Shown in pieces: positions 1,907 to 18,177 of a stretch of 32,000 nt of DNA. A program made the translations under genes and the position numbers. This stretch comes from Acaryochloris marina MBIC11017 (GTDB lineage: Bacteria; Cyanobacteriota; Cyanobacteriia; Thermosynechococcales; Thermosynechococcaceae). Under the pieces are notes generated by a model, which was given only the letters and a program-made list of their open reading frames with translations, made no database searches and was not told the DNA's origin. The stretch is taken from contig NC_009925.1 in assembly GCF_000018105.1 (NCBI RefSeq), forward strand, positions 1,980,001-2,012,000, read 5' to 3'. Within the stretch, counting starts at the first letter, position 1. Every line of letters starts with the position of its first letter.

Positions 1907-2767
1907 TTAGTAATGGAAGGGGATCGTCAACAAAGGGGCAGCAGTAACCAATAAGCCGCTCCAGGTCCAGGGATAGGAAGGAGGAGCCGTTCCCCTGGGG
2001 GCAAGCAGGGCATCGATTCGCTCTGATAAGCGATGGCCCGTTGCCGTCTGCATGGCGGCACAAATATTTTCCGCAAACTCTGCCGGATAGGGATTGACCA
2101 TCAACAGCAAGGATTCCGCTAGCACCAACGGATCAACCTGCTGGGCAGCCCACTGATCGGCGCGCAATTCCCGCAGCAGCAAGAGTTCTTGCCACAGTTC
2201 TGTGGAATGGGGCAGCCAAGCCGTCAGCCGACGCAGCCAGCCCCACCAGAAAAACCAAAAGGTATCGCGATACTGCTGATGGGCTTGTTCATGGACCAGT
2301 ACTGCGGCTAGCTGATCCGCAGACAGGGCCTGCACTAACCCCTTGGTAATCACTAATTCAGACTGCCAAAACCCGACTTGAGCGGCATAGGGCAAGGCAT
2401 GATCGATTTGGTAGGCTGCATGGCCTTGAATATGGGTTTGGGGACAGGCATAAATGCGCTGTAAGCTCGACCATCCCTCCATCAGGAGCTTGAGATTAAG
2501 GCAGGCCGCTACTCCCACAAATCCAGCAGCGACACCATAACTCCACCCATTTTCTCGAACCCAAACCATATGGCCTTGAGGTCCCATGTATAGAACTGCG
2601 ATCGCAGTCATTAACAACAGCAAGGGGGACCATAAAAAGACCAGTAAATTCCCCTGCCACCTCTGGGCCCAGGTCCATTGGTCTCGATTGGATTCCAGCC
2701 AGCGATAGCCATAGGTTCGGCACAGCCAGGCCAAAGACAAGGCACTGAGAATCATCAGCAAATGCAT
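1907..2767 (-). CDS. M56-family (BlaR1/MecR1-like) membrane zinc metalloprotease, short form with no recognisable sensor domain
   Basis: 286 aa with several hydrophobic helices. The HEXXH motif occurs as VHEQAHQQYRD. The start ATG shares one base with the stop of the upstream BlaI-like gene (TAATG on the minus strand at 2765-2769). Confidence 0.8.
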   Translation of the reverse strand: MHLLMILSALSLAWLCRTYGYRWLESNRDQWTWAQRWQGNLLVFLWSPLLLLMTAIAVLYMGPQGHMVWVRENGWSYGVAAGFVGVAACLNLKLLMEGWSSLQRIYACPQTHIQGHAAYQIDHALPYAAQVGFWQSELVITKGLVQALSADQLAAVLVHEQAHQQYRDTFWFFWWGWLRRLTAWLPHSTELWQELLLLRELRADQWAAQQVDPLVLAESLLLMVNPYPAEFAENICAAMQTATGHRLSERIDALLAPRGTAPPSYPWTWSGLLVTAAPLLTIPFHY

Positions 2768-3186
2768 TACTGATCCTCCCTGGCTTTGCGAGCGGCCCGT
2801 ATCTTATCTGCGATCTCTTCCAGTTGCTCGACGCTGGCCTGATCGAGATGATCGGCAAAAGCAGCAACCGTATCAGGATTCCCGACGGCTAAAAACTGCT
2901 GAAGTTGGTCGTAGGCCCAAAGAGAGTTGGCCTGGGCTCGGGAAACCAGAGGACGCCAAACAAAGCTGCGATTTTGCTTATCGCAAGCTAACCAGCCTTT
3001 TTTAGTCAGGCGATTAAGAACGGTGGTAACGGAGGTGTAGGCCAATTCGCGATCGGGATTGGTCAAAATCTGTTCATGCACCTGTTTGACGGTGGCGGTC
3101 CCTAAATCCCAAATCAAGTTGAGAATTTCGAATTCTAAGGGGCCGAGAGAAAGCTGCTTGGGACGAAAGTCCGGGAGCGATGCCAT
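2767..3186 (-). CDS. BlaI/MecI/CopY-family winged-helix transcriptional repressor
   Basis: 139 aa. LGPLEFEILNLIWDLGTATVKQVHEQI...YTSVTTVLNRLTKKGWL matches the BlaI/CopY penicillinase-repressor fold pattern. It is paired with an M56 protease gene. Confidence 0.85.
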   Translation of the reverse strand: MASLPDFRPKQLSLGPLEFEILNLIWDLGTATVKQVHEQILTNPDRELAYTSVTTVLNRLTKKGWLACDKQNRSFVWRPLVSRAQANSLWAYDQLQQFLAVGNPDTVAAFADHLDQASVEQLEEIADKIRAARKAREDQ

Positions 3187-3310: not shown

Positions 3311-3724
3311 CTAGTCGAAGACGATAAATGGATTCATCTCAGCCGGAGTCATCCACTCAATGCCATACTTTTCTCGCAAAATCCGTTTCATCACCAACCA
3401 TTGTTGATGGCAGAGTCCCCTCCCGGGGTGGCACAAATCGGCAGCTTTAGGTGAGGTGTTTTGCAGCTCAATCATCCGCTGCCGATGCTCACGATCTACT
3501 TCTTGACGCGCTTGTAATCGCACGTCTTCAAATATTGGCTGCAAGTCAGGATCATCTTCAAGAGGATCATGTAATTCAGAAGTGCCCGATTGATGCGCCA
3601 CTTGCAGTGCATCAATCATCTTGAATCGTTTTTCAAAGGAGAGGTTTTGAAGATAAAACTTCCCTTGCGCTATCGGGCAGCCAGTAACCCGATGGAAAAG
3701 CATGACATCAGAGTTATCTAACAA
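3311..3724 (-). CDS. Hypothetical protein (small-ORF array member F)
   Basis: 137-aa ORF with a conserved-looking C-terminal block GLCHQQWLVMKRILREKYGIEWMTPAEMNPFIVFD. I cannot name a family. Confidence 0.55.
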   Translation of the reverse strand: MLDNSDVMLFHRVTGCPIAQGKFYLQNLSFEKRFKMIDALQVAHQSGTSELHDPLEDDPDLQPIFEDVRLQARQEVDREHRQRMIELQNTSPKAADLCHPGRGLCHQQWLVMKRILREKYGIEWMTPAEMNPFIVFD

Positions 3725-3897
3725 GAGCGAGTATTGAAAAACGTAGTACAGCCCTATGCTAGCTTGCCATTTGCTTAAACAGTTGATGTATCCAAGTGCT
3801 CAAAACACCCACTTTGAAACAACGCCTTGATTTATCGTTTGCTTAAGTCGTGTTTGGTTGTTCCGTATGCTCACAGCAACCAGCGAGTCATTGAGTA

Positions 3898-4257
3898 TTA
3901 GCTGATGCAAACACCAGCATTTCGCTGCTTGGCTAAGTCTATCGCGGAGAGAAAACGCTTCATATATGTCTGAATCCTCGCCGACTGTGCTTTATTACGC
4001 CAAATTTCTTGGGCAATAGCCACAGAATCTGCATAAATCATGTGACACTCAGCAGCAAACAGATCTAATTCCTCAGGGTAAACAAATAAGTCACCATCAT
4101 TGAGTTGGGGGAAGTACCTTGCGCCACGCCGAATCAGTGATTGCGCCCCCCATAACTGTGTACGATATGACTCAAATCCAGCCATATCATATTCAATTGC
4201 ATTGAGATAGGAGTAGGGACCTGAACTTGGATCGAAAAGGTCTATAACAAGGGTCAT
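3898..4257 (-). CDS. Hypothetical protein (small-ORF array member E)
   Basis: 119-aa ORF on the same strand as its neighbours, with a 20-nt gap to the upstream ORF. No recognisable motif. Confidence 0.55.
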   Translation of the reverse strand: MTLVIDLFDPSSGPYSYLNAIEYDMAGFESYRTQLWGAQSLIRRGARYFPQLNDGDLFVYPEELDLFAAECHMIYADSVAIAQEIWRNKAQSARIQTYMKRFLSAIDLAKQRNAGVCIS

Positions 4258-4278
4258 ATTTCCTTTGTGACTTGCACT

Positions 4279-4716
4279 TCAGCAAGAAAGATATGCGTTC
4301 GAATGGAGGCCAATCACTTCAGTTACGATTGCTACGGCGACTAGTCTACCTCCTTCCATAAAGTAGCCTTTTACACCTAACTGAATTCTTGAACAGTGAA
4401 TCTGTCGGCGCATTTCAGGTGACACAATCCACATGGTTGCCATACCAGTCATGGGGACAGGAGTATCTTGAGGAAAAACAGAACCGTCTAAAGCCAAAAA
4501 CTGAGGCCAAATCATATAGATGCCAGTTTCTGAAATATCGTCCCCTTTATACGACCAGTCACAGCGACAGCCCTGATAATATTGGCGACCACCCTCTAGT
4601 AGCAATCGATAACGAACCTTAAAGTCTGGCAACCTACCCGACACTTTGGCATAGCTGGTCATACTAGATACTTTAGTCTTGATTTCTGTATTTATTGGCC
4701 AGTTAAAGTTCAGCAT
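4279..4716 (-). CDS. Hypothetical protein with an EF-Tu domain-III-like beta-barrel signature (small-ORF array member D)
   Basis: The ORF 4279..4773 overlaps the upstream gene. Likely starts are Met20 (4716) or Met38 (4662). FKVRYRLLLEGGRQYYQGCRCDW...GMATMWIV...GVKGYFMEGGRLVAVAIVTEVIGL parallels EF-Tu domain III (F.aeVY.L.k.EGGR...F..GYRPQF...PGD...v.L..P...G.RFAIREGGRTVGAGVV). Confidence 0.5.
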   Translation of the reverse strand: MLNFNWPINTEIKTKVSSMTSYAKVSGRLPDFKVRYRLLLEGGRQYYQGCRCDWSYKGDDISETGIYMIWPQFLALDGSVFPQDTPVPMTGMATMWIVSPEMRRQIHCSRIQLGVKGYFMEGGRLVAVAIVTEVIGLHSNAYLSC

Positions 4717-5278
4717 CACTGATGCTCTGCTGTTGCCGTGCTCGATTACGCACAGCACTATTACAGCCTTCATGCACCAACCTATCGAGTTGCTGACGGG
4801 TGATTTCCTTTGCCACGATGAGTGATTCCTGGACCATTCGATCTTTGCTCGCTAAGCACCGTTTCACTAATTCATCGCTAATTGGCCCAGTTTCAATCGC
4901 CAGGGTTAGTCGTCGCCGTCTCACCAGCCTTTGATGACCGTCGCTCTGAAAGGCTGAATGTGTCGCAATGTGCTCAACTTGATCCTGACTTAAACGATGC
5001 CCAGTCAGGAGGTTCGCAAGTGCCGCTCCAGCCATCGCCTGATCAGGGTCAAGCACAGCCAATTCAATGTATTGCGCCAATTCTTCATTAGCCAAGAACA
5101 AATGCCTATCTAGGATGCGGAGAAATGAAGCATAACGATAGTGTTCAGCATTTTGATCGTCAGAGGACTCAAAAGTCTCATGTTGGCAGGCCAGCTCTTC
5201 TAGAGATAGAAATCCATAAACGAGCCATCGCCGATCATAGCCCAGTAATTTCAATGACTGTTCCGTATCCTGCATCAT
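4703..5278 (-). CDS. Hypothetical, predicted all-helical protein (small-ORF array member C)
   Basis: 191-aa ORF starting with a double Met. No motif recognised. Confidence 0.55.
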   Translation of the reverse strand: MMQDTEQSLKLLGYDRRWLVYGFLSLEELACQHETFESSDDQNAEHYRYASFLRILDRHLFLANEELAQYIELAVLDPDQAMAGAALANLLTGHRLSQDQVEHIATHSAFQSDGHQRLVRRRRLTLAIETGPISDELVKRCLASKDRMVQESLIVAKEITRQQLDRLVHEGCNSAVRNRARQQQSISDAEL

Positions 5279-5364
5279 CGTTGCGTTTATCCGCCCAATA
5301 TCCTAGCTCACCATCACTGGTTCAGAATGCAGCTTCATGAGAAGGAAGTAGATTGTGATAACCT

Positions 5365-5649
5365 TCAGTTCTGAAGCGAGATGCGCAATGGTTTAAGTCC
5401 CGGAGTTCTTGGCTGCCAACCCTTCTGAAGCGCCTCTTCAATGCATGTCACTACAAAGCCTGGGGTGATTTGCCGATATTGTTGATGTTCAGACGGATCA
5501 CTGTAATCCATCTGGACTTCCAATTTTTGGCCTGACGATTCATCATCTATGACAACCAGAATCATAAAGCCACTATCAGGCGACACGACCCAGCGATACC
5601 GGACATCGCCCGTTACTAGCGTTCGACTTTCTTTTTTTGCTAGAGCCAA
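5365..5649 (-). CDS. Hypothetical protein (small-ORF array member B)
   Basis: 94-aa ORF with a TTG start. On the minus strand it is preceded by GAGG five nt upstream (AGAGGTAATCTTG). Confidence 0.5.
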   Translation of the reverse strand: MALAKKESRTLVTGDVRYRWVVSPDSGFMILVVIDDESSGQKLEVQMDYSDPSEHQQYRQITPGFVVTCIEEALQKGWQPRTPGLKPLRISLQN

Positions 5650-5757
5650 GATTACCTCTATCTAATATTTACGATCATCAAATCCAGAATCACTCAAATA
5701 CTTTTTCAACAAGCTTTCCAGGCTTATGGACACCAGAATCATTTTTCCACAGAGTTT

Positions 5758-6516
5758 TCAACAGCAAGAGGAGACCATTCCCAACCCTTGATCAGCAGTA
5801 ACCTGATAGAAAAGCTGAATCTCTTGCAAAAACTCTTGCAGGAATGGATATTGATCTTCTGACCATCCGCCTCGGTAAATTGGTGGATTTATTTTCGCTG
5901 CTTGCTCAAACCGTCGCCGAACCTCTTTCTCACCAATTGCTGATAACACTCGTGAAATTTCTGCCACTTCACTCACGTCCTGGTACCAACAGCAAGGGTA
6001 TGAATCTGTTGGATCAACAGGTTTACCAGCAAAAATATTAACGCGGTTTAAATCATTAGCTACACATATGCAATCCAAATGATTCATCGCTTGACCATTC
6101 CTCAGCACATAGCTGCCCCAATCCCATGCCTGCCCTAAATACAGATATGAACAGTTTTTTTCACTACAAACAATTGAATATAGGCTCTGTTTCCAACGCT
6201 CATAATTCTTTGGGCAGTCACGTTTTAGGTCAACTAACATTTCAACGTCCCATTCCGTCCACACATTACAAACCTCATTTGCATCTGATGTGATTTCATC
6301 CAGGATTTGCCTTTGCTCTAATGTCAATTCGGAAATATCTGCAATCAAAGGTATATCAGTATTTTTAGGAGCTAGCTCTGCAATTATGTCTTCATAAATC
6401 TCTAAATCTTTCTGGAGAATGTCTAATCCAGTTTTAGTAATTTGTCTTAGCAATGCAGTAACTGACATATTTTTAAAAGCTGCTAATTCTGCCCAATATA
6501 TCTTTTGCACAACCAT
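5758..6516 (-). CDS. Hypothetical protein with a YfbM/DUF1877-like C-terminal region (small-ORF array member A)
   Basis: 252-aa ORF. LYLGQAWDWGSYVLRNG and EVRRRFEQAAKINPPIYRGGWSEDQYPFLQEFLQEIQLFYQVTADQGLG resemble, as I recall it, E. coli YfbM (LDIDKRWDFLHFGLTG ... ELRKQF...IYPG...LISAYRRMLRQGN). GC is markedly low in hand-counted blocks. Confidence 0.55.
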   Translation of the reverse strand: MVVQKIYWAELAAFKNMSVTALLRQITKTGLDILQKDLEIYEDIIAELAPKNTDIPLIADISELTLEQRQILDEITSDANEVCNVWTEWDVEMLVDLKRDCPKNYERWKQSLYSIVCSEKNCSYLYLGQAWDWGSYVLRNGQAMNHLDCICVANDLNRVNIFAGKPVDPTDSYPCCWYQDVSEVAEISRVLSAIGEKEVRRRFEQAAKINPPIYRGGWSEDQYPFLQEFLQEIQLFYQVTADQGLGMVSSCC

Positions 6517-6557: not shown

Positions 6558-6594
6558 GCTCCATAGGGCTTGCTAGACTCAAGCCCTATGGAGC
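6558..6594 (+). promoter_or_regulatory. Perfect 15-bp inverted repeat (7-nt loop) immediately upstream of the macro-domain gene; operator, RBS-sequestering hairpin or terminator-like element
   Basis: GCTCCATAGGGCTTG (6558-6572), loop CTAGACT, CAAGCCCTATGGAGC (6580-6594), followed by TTTT. The right arm contains GGAG (6590-6593), 7 nt before the TTG start at 6601. The loop contains TAGACT, 18 nt after TTGACG (6550-6555). Confidence 0.5.
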
Positions 6595-7191: not shown

Positions 7192-7356
7192 GGGCGCCCA
7201 TTCCGTTAGCAATTCATCCATCTCCATGTACGACAGACTGTCGTTTGACTTTTTCAGAACGCTTCACCCAGGATAGTTGTGGCAAATGGTTTGCCAGTCA
7301 AATTTGAAGTTGTTTTTGACTTGCGATCTCATCTCACTCCACTGGGGAATCTGATT

Positions 7357-7848
7357 ATGACTTCTGTTCGGAAAGGGGCTTTACTAGCGGTTTATATCGG
7401 GGTCGGGACTTTGGTGACACCCCAAATTGTGCAATCCCACCATACTCAGCCCCAAACCGTCTCATCCGCCGATCAGAAAACCAAACATCATCACCACAAG
7501 CACCATAAACAACTCGAAATTTCCGCCAATCAAGCCCCACCCACGGTCGAGTTAGTCGCTCATCCTGATCAGGTCCAGGGCTGGAATTTAGAACTAAAGG
7601 TCACTAACTTTAACTTTGCCCCCACCAAAGTCAATGCCCCGAGTAAAATCTCCGAAGGCCATGCTCACCTGTATATCAATGACAAAAAAGTAACTCGTCT
7701 TTACGGCAATTGGTACTATCTCTCTGAGTTACCCACAGGCACGAACACCCTCAAAGTCACCCTCAACAGCAACGGCCATGAAGCCCTCGTGCGTCGAGGC
7801 CAACCCATCAGCGACACTGCAGTGATTCAGGTTGCGCCCCGACCCTAA
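7357..7848 (+). CDS. Secreted/periplasmic His-rich protein, possibly metal-binding
   Basis: The ORF is open from GTG 7279. ATG 7357 (MTSVRKGALLAVYIGVGTLV...) gives a signal-peptide-like N-terminus and is preceded by GGGGA. It has a His cluster KTKHHHHKHHK and EGHAHLYINDKKV in a beta-rich C-terminal domain. Its stop lies 1 nt before the next ATG. Confidence 0.7.
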   Translation: MTSVRKGALLAVYIGVGTLVTPQIVQSHHTQPQTVSSADQKTKHHHHKHHKQLEISANQAPPTVELVAHPDQVQGWNLELKVTNFNFAPTKVNAPSKISEGHAHLYINDKKVTRLYGNWYYLSELPTGTNTLKVTLNSNGHEALVRRGQPISDTAVIQVAPRP

Positions 7849-7849
7849 A

Positions 7850-7981
7850 ATGCTAGACCTGTTGCTCGTCACAGCCCTGGGATTTGTCGGCAGCTTTGGC
7901 CATTGCGTCGGTATGTGTGGACCCTTAGCCGCCAGCTTTGCCCTGACCTCCGGTGGATCCCGAACGTGCGACAACAACTAA
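7850..7981 (+). pseudogene. Detached N-terminal fragment (HCxGMCGP motif) of the downstream DsbD_2-type gene; apparent 1-nt frameshift
   Basis: ATG 7850 lies 1 nt after the upstream TAA (7846-7848). My translation is MLDLLLVTALGFVGSFGHCVGMCGPLAASFALTSGGSRTCDNN*, with TAA at 7979-7981. The next conserved block of this family (LLLNLGRSLSYGLIGAAIG) continues in the -1 frame, in ORF 7903..9069. Confidence 0.5.
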
Positions 7982-9069
7982 CCTTTCATCTTCTGCTCAA
8001 TCTGGGACGAAGTCTAAGTTATGGCCTGATCGGAGCAGCCATTGGTGCCCTTAGTTCTGTCCTGGTTGCGGGGGGAGAGCTGGCGGGCATCGATAGTGTT
8101 CTTCGTCGTAGCATTGCCTTTTTGATGGGTGGCTTGTTGATCTGGCTGGGAGTTCGGCAAATTCGTCCCGGCTGGCTACCTAAACTACCCTTGCCGCACC
8201 CATTATTGAAATTGGGGCTGCATGAGCGTTTCAATCGAGCCATGGCAGGGTTGGCCCATCAACCCCACTGGTGGACGCCTGCGTTACTGGGCATGGTTTG
8301 GGGACTCATTCCCTGTGGCTTTCTGTATGCAGCCCAAATTAAAGCCGCAGCCACAGGGGACTGGTTACTCGGAAGTGCCACGATGCTGTGTTTCGGGTTG
8401 GGAACGATGCCAACCTTGTTAGGAGTGGGGCTTTCCACTGCCATTCTTAGCCAGGATCGACGCAGCCAGCTCTTTCTGTTAGGGGGCTGGCTGATGCTGA
8501 TCATTGGTGTGCTGACCGTCCTCAGAACGGGAGAAATGCAGGACTACAGCAGCCATACCGCCTTGTTGTTATTAATGTTGGCCCTCCTCGCCCGTCCCAT
8601 CCAACCTTTGTGGTCAGCTCCACTGCACTATCGACGGTTATTGGGGGTTGGGGCCTTTATCCTCTCACTCATCCATGTATTGCGGGTACTCGACCATTCC
8701 TTTCAGTGGTCTCTCACAGCGGTTCCCTTTATGCTGCCCCTCCATCAAGCAGGTCTCTGGACAGGTATCGCTGCATTAACCTTGCTCATTCCGTTAGCTA
8801 CAACCAGTACCAATTGGATGGTGCAACGATTAGGTTCCCATTGGCGACGACTCCATCTTCTCAGTATCCCTGCTCTCCTATTAGCAGGCAGCCATACGGT
8901 GATGATCGGATCCCATTATTTAGGGGGGCTGGAATGGACAGGGGTGCATTTGGGGAGAACTGTTGCGATCACAACGGCAATCCTCCTGGTTTTACTGATC
9001 CGCTGCCGTTGGGTATGGGCCTTGTTCTCACTGGAGAAATTTTATGGTGCGTCTTCTCCATTGCGGTAG
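7903..9069 (+). CDS. Membrane protein: DsbD_2/TauE-like TM domain fused to an MsrQ/YedZ-like (ferric-reductase-type) heme-b domain; N-terminus apparently lost by frameshift
   Basis: 388-aa ORF. TTG is the first in-frame start and the frame is open from 7849. NLGRSLSYGLIGAAIG, GLIPCGFLYAAQ and FGLGTMPTLLG fit the DsbD_2 type. The C-terminal third has RRLLGVGAFILSLIHVL...LIPLATTSTNWMVQRLGSHWRRLHLLS...GSHTV. This matches the MsrQ/YedZ signature as I recall it (..TSTN..RRLG..W..LH.L..). Confidence 0.7.
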   Translation: MRRYVWTLSRQLCPDLRWIPNVRQQLTFHLLLNLGRSLSYGLIGAAIGALSSVLVAGGELAGIDSVLRRSIAFLMGGLLIWLGVRQIRPGWLPKLPLPHPLLKLGLHERFNRAMAGLAHQPHWWTPALLGMVWGLIPCGFLYAAQIKAAATGDWLLGSATMLCFGLGTMPTLLGVGLSTAILSQDRRSQLFLLGGWLMLIIGVLTVLRTGEMQDYSSHTALLLLMLALLARPIQPLWSAPLHYRRLLGVGAFILSLIHVLRVLDHSFQWSLTAVPFMLPLHQAGLWTGIAALTLLIPLATTSTNWMVQRLGSHWRRLHLLSIPALLLAGSHTVMIGSHYLGGLEWTGVHLGRTVAITTAILLVLLIRCRWVWALFSLEKFYGASSPLR

Positions 9070-9619
9070 TTTAGCCTTCTTAGCAGTTGGATTATTGGGC
9101 GGCCCCAGCCAGGCCCATACGGTCAAAGCATCCGACTCAGTTGCCGTCACCTTTCATTTAGAACCTGATCACAATCCAAGGGCAGGAGACCCTGCTCAAG
9201 TCTGGTTCGTCCTTACCCAAAAGGGGGGCAGTACCATCCCTCTCTCCCAATGCGACTGCCATCTGCAGGTGATTGCAGAGGAAAATGGACAGACAATTGC
9301 CCAACCGCCTTTAACCGCCGTCTCCGCAGAGCAATACCAAAATATTCCTGGCGCTGATGTGACGTTCCCAAAACCGGGGGCATACCAATTGAGCATTCAA
9401 GGCCAGCCACAAACAGGCGATGCATTCCAGCCATTTCAGTTTAGTTTTCCCGTCACTGTCGCTAAAGGCAGTAGCCCAAAGCCCTCTCCACCTGTCCAGT
9501 CAACAGATACGCCCTTGTCTTCGTCAAAATCAGGTCTACCCAAGGTTGTATGGATCAGCATCAGTATTGGCGTAGGACTCAGTTTCGTGATGCTAGTTCT
9601 TCGACTGCGCAAAAAATAG
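9044..9619 (+). CDS. Secreted protein with a C-terminal membrane anchor; predicted mature N-terminal His (possible Cu/metal-binding Ig-like domain)
   Basis: 191 aa, overlapping the upstream gene by 26 nt. Signal peptide MVRLLHCGSLAFLAVGLLGGPSQA|HTVKAS. It has a beta-rich domain, a Pro/Ser linker, a terminal TM helix VVWISISIGVGLSFVMLVL, then RLRKK. Confidence 0.7.
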   Translation: MVRLLHCGSLAFLAVGLLGGPSQAHTVKASDSVAVTFHLEPDHNPRAGDPAQVWFVLTQKGGSTIPLSQCDCHLQVIAEENGQTIAQPPLTAVSAEQYQNIPGADVTFPKPGAYQLSIQGQPQTGDAFQPFQFSFPVTVAKGSSPKPSPPVQSTDTPLSSSKSGLPKVVWISISIGVGLSFVMLVLRLRKK

Positions 9620-17262: not shown

Positions 17263-18177
17263 TTGGGTCTAACCTGGACTGATAGATCAGCCCACCGATT
17301 GACTCACTTCACTGTAGACGACAACCCCAGGATTTTGAAGACGACGGTACCTCAGGCCCTATGGCAACTTTGTGTAAAAGGATTTGTCCGCATCCTGATT
17401 GGTGCTGATAATCAAAACCAATACGATACCTATGATTGGGAAGCAGGATGTCATGCCCTCAGAAATCCAGATCTAGCCTACCCTCAGTACTACCGCATCC
17501 CCAACTTTCATGGGGTCGAAGGGGGTTATCTCTGCAAAGAAGCTGCGGTCACCTACGATGCGGTTACGGCCTTTGCCTGTCCTCCCCATGAAATGAATCT
17601 GCGACGAGAAGTCTTGAAATCTATTCAAGGGCAACCTCAACGAATTCTGGACTTAGGCTGTGGAACCGGTTCCATGACCTTGATGCTTAAAGCTACCTAT
17701 CCCCAAGCGGAAGTCATTGGCCTAGATTTATCGCCCTATATGTTGTGTCACGCCCAACATAAGAGCCAAAAGGCTCAGCTCACCATCCATTGGCTGCATG
17801 GCTTAGCAGAAGCGACAGACTTAAAGGCTCACAGCTTTGATGTGATCAGTATTTGCATGGTCTTCCATGAAATGCCTCCGCGCATTTCACGGTTGGTCTT
17901 GCAAGAATGTCGTCGCTTACTGAAATCGGGTGGTCAACTCATCATTTTGGACGGTAATCAAAACCGCCTCCGCCATGCAGACTGGCTGATTCGACTATTT
18001 CGAGAACCCTATTCTACGGTTTACGCCAAAGAGAGCATCCACGACTGGGTCACCGAAGCTGGCTTTGAAAACGTCAGCACCCGATACCTCGGCTGGATTC
18101 ACCAACTAACGGCAGGGACAAGCCCTCACCACCGAGATGAGCCACCCCTTAGACAGTTACAAACCCACGCAGTTTAA
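17263..18177 (+). CDS. Class I SAM-dependent methyltransferase
   Basis: Motif I is [14 protein letters not shown], followed by [25 protein letters not shown] and [11 protein letters not shown]. There is no ATG near the N-terminus. The TTG 17263 start is uncertain. Confidence 0.85.

Follow-up and report, generated by a model that had tools for sequence, protein, structure and literature searches.

Three co-directional genes, here termed g1, g2 and g3, were found in a 32,000-nucleotide stretch of Acaryochloris marina MBIC11017 (contig NC_009925.1, positions 1,980,001 to 2,012,000), which is referred to below as the window. As shown in Table 1, they encode a secreted protein, a membrane protein and a second secreted protein. 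The genes are tightly coupled, as an earlier note on this DNA had claimed: the coordinates confirmed from the sequence gave a 1-nt gap between g1 and g2 and a 26-nt overlap between g2 and g3, with the g2 stop codon (9067-9069) lying inside the start region of g3. Upstream of g1 there is a putative operator of the copper-sensing regulator PetR. Because the genes sit behind a predicted copy of the DNA site used by PetR, the operon is probably an uncharacterised copper-scavenging system that would be switched on at copper scarcity. The PetR operator and the link of the operon to cytochrome c6 were overlooked in the earlier note and are the strongest clue to its function.

Table 1. Features of the g1-g2-g3 locus, with coordinates in the window.
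Feature	Coordinates	Strand	Description or basis
g1	7357-7848	+	Open reading frame, 163 aa, secreted
g2	7850-9069	+	Membrane protein, 11 predicted transmembrane helices; frame-interrupted in the window
g3	9044-9619	+	Open reading frame, 191 aa, secreted
Putative PetR operator, petJ (activator) type	7232-7249	+	Motif match
1-nt deletion site in g2	7966-7969	+	Alignment with three other assemblies
PetR-like BlaI/CopY-family repressor (Penicillinase_R)	2767-3186	-	Pfam Penicillinase_R, 1.7e-29
PetP-like BlaR-type membrane metalloprotease, M48/M56, with HEQAH	1907-2767	-	Pfam Peptidase_M48, 4e-6; M56, 7e-4

In Synechocystis, the switch between plastocyanin and cytochrome c6 is controlled by PetR and PetP, which together sense copper. 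The core of the PetR motif is GACN5GTC; the activated form, at petJ, is TTTGAC-N9-TTTGAC centred on the -35 box, and the repressed form, at petE, is GACA-N3-TGTC (bioRxiv 10.1101/2020.07.31.226407). In the window, GACAGACTGTCGTTTGAC matched the petJ-type motif 115 nt 5' of the g1 ATG. The second half-site of this putative box (GACAGACTGTC-G-TTTGAC) overlapped a -35-like TTGACT at 7245-7250. Only two GACN5GTC sites were found in the window, and the extended motif occurred once. The other core site, at 17603, was put down to chance, as it lies inside a methyltransferase gene and is not accompanied by the TTTGAC extension.

The locus was then compared with its relatives by a survey of one genome per species, which yielded 547 relatives of g2. 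The best 80 of these, together with loci obtained by exact-protein look-up, contained 65 distinct loci with the domain fusion of g2 described below (fusion loci). Nearly all of them were labelled cyanobacterial, apart from a few unclassified metagenome bins, and the remainder of the best 80 relatives were DsbD_2-only genes in Bacteroidota, Holophagae and others. One contig of a metagenome-assembled genome binned as Acetobacteraceae (L008, CAZZZY010000256.1) carried a cyanobacterium-like g2-g3 pair, 57% identical to g2, and is probably mis-binned. The strict pattern GACN5GTCNTTTGAC occurred 29 times in the 756 kb of the 65 fusion loci, compared with about 0.1 expected by chance (our own estimate, from 12 specified bases on two strands). 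All except two of these 29 matches shared the strand of the operon and preceded its first gene, so that 27/65 loci carried one. The first gene behind the box was g2 in Nostocales, g1 where it was present, and the cytochrome c6 gene where that was present. The aligned sites read agTTTGAC(A/G)nnnTGTCtTTTGACa, and a -10-like hexamer follows TTGACA at a distance of 17 nt, which is the architecture of the petJ promoter. The same box preceded TPR-g1 in Pleurocapsa (L089) and cytochrome c6-g1 in Leptothermofonsia (L090), in both of which g1 lies far from g2. A predicted petJ-type PetR operator is therefore well supported both for the operon and for g1 wherever it lies, and since the operon and g1 carry this operator, induction would be expected when copper is scarce. 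Regulation by PetR, and its direction, are predictions from these motifs. Locus L087 contained a second full PetR-type box (GACAGCGTGTCGTTTGAC, 9249-9266) between g2 and g3, which suggests that g3 may be transcribable there from a copper-responsive promoter of its own.

The g2-g3 pair was widely kept. The gene for g3 adjoined g2 in 53 of the 65 fusion loci, mostly directly downstream on the same strand, and among the 12 loci without an adjacent g3, four were contigs that end right after g2. The proposal that all three genes form a unit across genomes held for this pair but not for g1, which adjoined g2 in only 10/65 loci; for this reason the g2-g3 pair is taken as the conserved unit, with g1 as an accessory in the predicted regulon. 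Two further neighbours were recurrent, namely a canonical cytochrome c6 gene and a gene for a TPR protein of about 300 aa. Cytochrome c6 was encoded in the same operon in L006, L030, L060, L061, L078, L087 and L090, which favours a copper-responsive role. The order in L006 was petP-petR (divergent), cytochrome c6, TPR, g1, g2, g3, with a box in front of the operon; it was cytochrome c6, g1, g2, g3 in L060 and L061, and cytochrome c6, (SodC), g3, g2 in L030 and L078. The gene between cytochrome c6 and g3 in the PetR-box operon of L078 (4797-5351) encodes a Cu,Zn superoxide dismutase (Sod_Cu, 2.7e-29). A CopZ-like HMA protein and an HMA-bearing P1B-type ATPase were encoded directly downstream of g3 on the same strand in L057 (8187-10852), which also favours copper. 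In Bacteroidota, the order CcoNO, CcoP, CcoG, FixH, DsbD_2-only, CcoI was found (L070, 675-9128, and L079), that is, a cluster for copper delivery to, and assembly of, the cbb3 oxidase. The DsbD_2-only gene between fixH and ccoI is recurrent and apparently unstudied, and it may bear on copper delivery to cbb3.

The g2 gene was not a single open reading frame in the window, and the earlier note had merged two frames unnoticed. The frame starting at ATG-7850 (MLDLL...HCVGMCGP...SGGSRTCDNN) ended at a TAA stop at 7979-7981, its product being MLDLLLVTALGFVGSFGHCVGMCGPLAASFALTSGGSRTCDNN; the rest of the gene, about 365 codons to the stop at 9069, lies in the -1 frame, so that the DsbD_2 domain is divided between two frames in this copy. 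Exact-protein look-up of g3 led to the Acaryochloris chromosome AP026075.1 (NCBI) and several read-archive assemblies. One G next to position 7968 was absent from the window, where three other assemblies have GTGGCG and the window has GTGCG. This was the sole indel over 19.6 kb of shared, 99.99-100% identical sequence, and all three other assemblies covering the site encode an uninterrupted g2 of 406 aa. Because of this, the frameshift was attributed to an assembly error or to a strain-specific lesion; of the two, an error of the assembly is the more likely, the alternative being that the system does not work in this strain. A programmed frameshift was ruled out, as g2 with the extra G is an ordinary reading frame at this locus in the three other assemblies, and it is also contradicted by the homologues, all of which are about 406 aa long in one frame.

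The domain analyses of g2 were made on the intact, frame-repaired protein of 406 aa, which belongs to a family of more than 120 cyanobacterial clusters of about this length. The fusion of a DsbD_2 domain to an MsrQ-like domain, as read in the earlier note, proved to be real. DsbD_2 (PF13386) matched residues 8-222 over the full length of the model with 150.4 bits (cut-off 24.9), and Ferric_reduct (PF01794) matched residues 239-346 with 35.0 bits (cut-off 28). The NCBIfam MsrQ equivalog NF003831 gave 32.5 bits (E 5.7e-8), below its cut-off of 130 bits, and DsbD_TM gave 19 bits, below its cut-off of 27.1. No significant match was obtained when the g2 sequence was searched against the PDB. Some sources label the protein 'ferric reductase' or 'urease accessory protein UreH domain-containing'. 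Across 21 diverse homologues, H18-C19-x-x-M22-C23-G-P in helix 1, P155-C156-G-F in helix 4 and R262-R263, H276, H283, H336 and H349 in the reductase domain were invariant. Hydropathy predicted 11 helices that run from an external N-terminus to an internal C-terminus; in this topology the cysteines C19 and C23 lie in transmembrane helix 1 (TM1) and C156 in TM4, the Arg pair is on the cytoplasmic side, and H276 and H349 are in the outer half of the membrane.

In E. coli MsrQ, His91 and His164 are the heme ligands, and flavin mononucleotide (FMN) is held by His151 together with Arg77/Arg78 (PMC12525009). The spacings of the Arg pair and the three His in g2 (14, 60 and 13 residues) were the same as those of R77/R78, H91, H151 and H164 of MsrQ. 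BLASTP of g2 against MsrQ, for which an approximate sequence was used, gave 31% identity with RRLLG, H91 and H151 aligned. In a survey of FRD proteins, YedZ and STEAP1 retained three His plus an Arg, and STEAPs reduce both Fe(III) and Cu(II) (PMC3591440). It is well supported that g2 joins a permease-like DsbD_2 domain to a transmembrane electron-transfer domain of the MsrQ/STEAP type. The source of the electrons is another matter. It had been suggested that delivery is driven by quinol, which appears doubtful: ubiquinone is unable to donate electrons to MsrQ, which receives them from a cytosolic flavin reductase via its bound FMN (PMC12525009), and the quinol-driven reading is disfavoured for this reason. 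The absence of an MsrP-like partner was confirmed, as no molybdoenzyme gene was present within about 10 kb of the operon and no Oxidored_molyb-type gene was found in the 20-kb locus or in three further annotated loci.

The constant partner of g2 is g3. Its family comprised 66 clusters in a word search and 1411 representative clusters in an exhaustive profile search, and it is cyanobacterial. The window protein reads ...GGPSQA|HTVKAS..., with the signal-peptide junction previously placed at SQA|H; Ala-His at this position was invariant in 34/34 homologues, and the predicted mature N-terminus is His25. H38-x-E40-P-x-H43, W54, C72, E96 and Y98 were also invariant in the family, and C70 of C70-x-C72 was nearly so. 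In the window copy, the beta-sandwich leads into a linker rich in Pro and Ser, and the C-terminus is formed by a hydrophobic helix and the residues RLRKK. The predicted membrane anchor described for it is thus present here, but it is absent from about 15 of the 34 aligned homologues, and neither linker nor anchor occurs in many homologues that are about 145 aa long. Possible domain fusions in the long homologues were discarded, since the extra length consisted of low-complexity tails only.

The beta-rich domain expected of g3 was borne out by its AlphaFold (AF2) model, a predicted nine-strand beta-sandwich with pLDDT >90 over residues 30-140. When this model was compared with the PDB by Foldseek, the best single match was the uncharacterised DUF4426 protein PA0388 (4e-5). 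FetP, P19 and FtrA matched the model with E values from 1e-4 to 1e-3 and TM-scores of about 0.55, and H. pylori CrdA matched with E 1.5e-4. A likeness to histidine-brace copper proteins such as CopC and YcnI had also been proposed. The part concerning CopC was retained as a weak match of the modelled fold (rank 49, E 8.5e-3, TM-score 0.57 on the target), with no Pfam match of g3 to the CopC profile (PF04234); YcnI (DUF1775) was not among the top 50 Foldseek matches in the PDB, nor did any of 34 g3 members match it in Pfam at E up to 10. Sequence and profile searches of g3 against Pfam, NCBIfam and the PDB gave no family above threshold. Because hhalign of the g3 family against P19 (approximate sequence) returned a probability of only 1%, the resemblance to P19 is one of fold only. 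Taken as a constant secreted partner of g2 with a conserved surface of metal-ligand-like residues and a predicted exposed N-terminal His, g3 is well supported.

In g1, the KTKHHHHKHHK linker and the EGHAHLYIN motif were both confirmed. Its homologues formed 135 clusters, every one of them cyanobacterial and labelled 'hypothetical'; H50, D71, GWNL, G101-H102-x-H104-L105, N139 and H141 were invariant in the family. The AF2 model predicted an Ig-like beta-sandwich (pLDDT 81). The fold search of g1 returned only generic Ig-like FN3, CARDB and PKD matches with E above 5e-3, Pfam gave only sub-threshold matches (DUF2846, TcaA_3rd_4th and DUF4399), and no NCBIfam family was above threshold. Matches of g1 to PDB sequences were dismissed as His-tag artefacts. 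Many homologues have a His right after the predicted signal-peptide cleavage (...A|H..., or ...S|HH... in the window), in a region of the N-terminus that aligns poorly, and g1 may expose an N-terminal His as well.

The PetP-like and PetR-like genes of the window overlap by one base and lie about 4 kb upstream of the operon. The repressor is likely to be the regulator of the operon, because the same gene pair lies divergent beside the box-bearing operon in L006. Unrelated small genes and a macro-domain gene are located between the pair and the operon. Six small or medium genes of unassigned function (137, 119, 145-164, 191, 94 and 252 aa, the last a DUF1877 gene) occupy 3311-6516 on the minus strand, and this stretch resembles an insertion into a neighbourhood of PetRP genes and operon that is otherwise syntenic with L006. 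A probable terminator, a perfect hairpin with a 15-bp stem and a T-run behind it (GCTCCATAGGGCTTG...CAAGCCCTATGGAGC TTTT, 6558-6594), separates the minus-strand DUF1877 gene from the plus-strand macro-domain gene.

We put the chance that g1-g2-g3 is a PetR-activated operon for reductive copper acquisition, induced by copper deficiency, at somewhat below even. We infer the steps that would lead from the PetR box to copper import, as well as the identity of the metal, the direction of transport and the membrane concerned (plasma or thylakoid). When copper is scarce, PetR would accumulate, bind the box and activate the promoter, as it does for petJ. The exported g3 protein, together with g1 where present, would capture Cu(II) through sites made of His, Glu and Asp, with the free N-terminal His of g3 among them. 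In g2, the domain of the MsrQ/STEAP type would then take electrons from a flavin or NAD(P)H donor in the cytoplasm and move them, over a bound flavin and a single heme b, to the outward side of the membrane, where they would reduce Cu(II) to Cu(I). The DsbD_2 domain, which is UreH-like and permease-like and whose intramembrane His-Cys-Met-Cys and Pro-Cys motifs would suit a soft metal, might finally conduct Cu(I) across the membrane.

Several points weigh against this reading. The metal is read from context only, and the regulation, metal binding and transport of all the operon members are predicted. The PetR regulon has been mapped in Synechocystis alone, where it consisted only of petE, petJ and slr0601/2 (bioRxiv 10.1101/2020.07.31.226407), with none of g1-g3 among them, and in reviews up to mid-2026 no PetR targets other than petE, petJ and slr0601/2 are named. 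The candidates slr0601 and slr0602 were rejected as homologues of g1-g3 from their published descriptions as a small protein with two transmembrane helices and a coiled-coil protein. The assignment of the box relies on a motif described for petJ and petE, and the strict motif was absent from 38/65 loci, some of which have degenerate versions. The fold matches of g3 were modest (E about 1e-4, TM-scores of 0.55-0.76 on the target), and no sequence-level link to P19, CopC or YcnI was found. The presence of a Cu,Zn superoxide dismutase in an operon predicted to be induced by copper starvation (L078) is awkward. Furthermore, DsbD_2 is homologous to the thiol-disulfide transporters CcdA and DsbD, with cysteines at equivalent positions in TM1 and TM4, and the cytochrome c6 and TPR proteins of the operon would fit cytochrome maturation equally well.

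A dedicated helper of cytochrome c6 maturation is accordingly the main rival, although we regard it as unlikely. A CcdA-like DsbD_2 domain would keep the CxxCH thiols of the apocytochrome reduced, the heme-b domain would hold heme iron in the ferrous state (a role already suggested for the CcmF b-heme), the TPR protein would act as chaperone of the apocytochrome, and g3 and g1 would handle heme or thiols. In line with this, the operon shares a transcript or a box type with cytochrome c6, the Pfam description of DsbD_2 is that of a cytochrome c biogenesis transmembrane region, and DsbD_TM matched g2 weakly. The positions of the g2 cysteines and the conserved CxC of g3 would also serve such a role, the TPR proteins of the operons gave sub-threshold matches to TPR_CcmH_CycH, and the cbb3 clusters holding DsbD_2 relatives also encode c-type cytochromes. 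However, neither g1 nor g3 is thioredoxin-like or CcmE-like in its predicted fold, and the invariant His and Met next to the cysteines of TM1, together with the many His, Glu and Asp of g1 and g3, resemble metal ligands. Most loci, which are from Nostocales, consist of g2-g3 and a box with no adjacent cytochrome gene, and copper genes neighbour the operon in L057 and L078. In addition, cyanobacteria already possess a constitutive System II, by which they mature cytochrome f. Should maturation nevertheless be the function, the operon would provide a new component of System II cytochrome biogenesis.

Reductive iron uptake, co-induced with cytochrome c6 because the replacement of plastocyanin raises the demand for iron, seemed quite unlikely. 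In this reading, Fe(III) reduction would fall to the FRD domain, periplasmic iron handling in the manner of P19 or FetP to g3, and the part of Fe(II) permease to DsbD_2. The name of the Pfam family (Ferric_reduct), the label 'ferric reductase' given to g2 by some sources and the best named fold matches of g3, which are the iron-uptake proteins FetP, P19 and FtrA, are consistent with this, and the HxE of g3 bears a superficial likeness to the HLE motif of P19. The inspected loci, however, contained no permease of the Ftr1, FetM or EfeU type and no Fur-type context, and g3 has no sequence-level similarity to P19. P19 and FetP themselves require copper, which would be odd under copper starvation. 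The intramembrane motifs rich in Cys and Met are better suited to Cu(I) than to Fe(II), and relatives of DsbD_2 occur in copper-delivery clusters.

Electron delivery of the MsrPQ kind was judged very unlikely. Here the MsrQ-type domain would feed g3 or g1 as a small redox enzyme or carrier of the periplasm or lumen, for example one that repairs or reduces an oxidised target, and the role of DsbD_2 would be separate or regulatory. The alignment of the FRD domain with MsrQ, in which the heme and FMN residues are kept, points this way, as does the overlap of g2 with the gene of a secreted partner, which recalls msrP and msrQ. The MsrQ model, however, scored only about 32 bits against a cut-off of 130, the molybdopterin partner is absent, and g3 is a predicted 120-residue beta-sandwich with no recognisable site for a redox cofactor beyond its metal ligands; the PetR box and the permease-like fusion would be left unexplained. 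A UreH-like permease that imports nickel or some other metal, with the copper link reduced to regulatory cross-talk, would agree with the UreH name given to the protein, with the nickel-uptake protein UreH of Bacillus and with His-rich stretches like that of g1, which are typical of Ni and Zn proteins, but this reading is highly improbable, as no urease, hydrogenase or Ni-regulator genes were seen near the inspected loci, Ni(II) uptake requires no reductase, and the regulatory and genomic contexts indicate copper.

As the earlier note had supposed, the literature yielded no characterised system composed in this way, nor did it yield any functional study of the DsbD_2::FRD fusion, of g1, of g3 or of their link to PetR. 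The kind of function proposed is reductive metal handling by an FRD protein, and the assignment to PetR is new. To our knowledge, no dedicated importer that brings in copper for plastocyanin and cytochrome oxidase has been established in cyanobacteria. An operon with a petJ-type operator, often co-transcribed with cytochrome c6, is a concrete candidate for copper acquisition under scarcity. More tentatively, and with roughly a one-in-three feeling of confidence, the DsbD_2::FRD protein and its secreted His-protein partner or partners could be the missing high-affinity copper importer of cyanobacteria, combining Cu(II) reduction and Cu(I) conduction in one polypeptide and forming an unrecognised arm of the PetR regulon. 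In that case, the PetR regulon would control the supply of copper as well as the switch between plastocyanin and cytochrome c6. Reductive copper acquisition would also be the first functional assignment for the widespread DsbD_2/UreH-like family and for a bacterial FRD-permease fusion, and the first for the two secreted families of 'hypothetical' proteins, g1 and g3, that are found across cyanobacteria.

Compared with E. coli MsrQ (YedZ) and the eukaryotic STEAP metalloreductases, which make up a single-heme branch of the ferric reductase domain (FRD) superfamily that binds flavin, the C-terminal domain of g2 matches Ferric_reduct and has the Arg pair and the three His at equal spacing, with a topology that would place the heme toward the periplasm, and the STEAPs likewise act on Cu(II) besides Fe(III). 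However, g2 does not have the first helix of MsrQ, its reductase domain follows a six-helix DsbD_2 domain in the same chain, it falls far below the equivalog cut-off, and it has neither an MsrP molybdoenzyme nor an NADPH-binding domain. The N-terminal 225 residues of g2 match the full model of the DsbD_2/UreH-like proteins (PF13386), including HCxxMCGP and PCGF, whereas the C-terminal reductase domain and the g3 partner are found in the cyanobacterial proteins only; no member of PF13386 with a demonstrated mechanism was found in the searchable literature. CcdA and DsbD have one essential Cys in TM1 and one in TM4, and their partner outside the membrane has a thioredoxin fold; in g2, cysteines are located in the predicted TM1 (C19, C23) and TM4 (C156), and the predicted folds of g1 and g3 are not thioredoxin-like. 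The operon resembles the PetRP regulon of Synechocystis in the operator architecture of the petJ promoter, in the PetR/PetP-like genes nearby and, in several genomes, in forming one operon with cytochrome c6. It differs in that g1-g3 are not among the four published targets, slr0601/2 are unrelated by description, and the regulation here is predicted.

Like FetP/P19/FtrA, CrdA and CopC, g3 is a small secreted protein with a predicted beta-sandwich. It would expose an N-terminal His after cleavage, as CopC and YcnI do, and the window copy has, like YcnI, a predicted C-terminal membrane anchor, which many g3 homologues do not have. The Cu(II) site of CopC is made up of His1, an Asp and a His. 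Unlike FetP, P19 and CopC, its partner is not a permease of the Ftr1/FetM or CopD type. The closest parallel in logic is eukaryotic. Reductive copper uptake in yeast is carried out by Fre1/Fre7 plus Ctr1, and the copper-deficiency regulon of Chlamydomonas co-induces cytochrome c6 and copper assimilation. The proposed cyanobacterial system would follow the same logic, in that an outward-facing heme reductase of the FRD type and a Cu(I) permease would be induced along with cytochrome c6 when copper is deficient. It would differ in using DsbD_2 in place of Ctr, in fusing reductase and permease in one bacterial protein, and in employing additional secreted proteins that are predicted to bind the metal.

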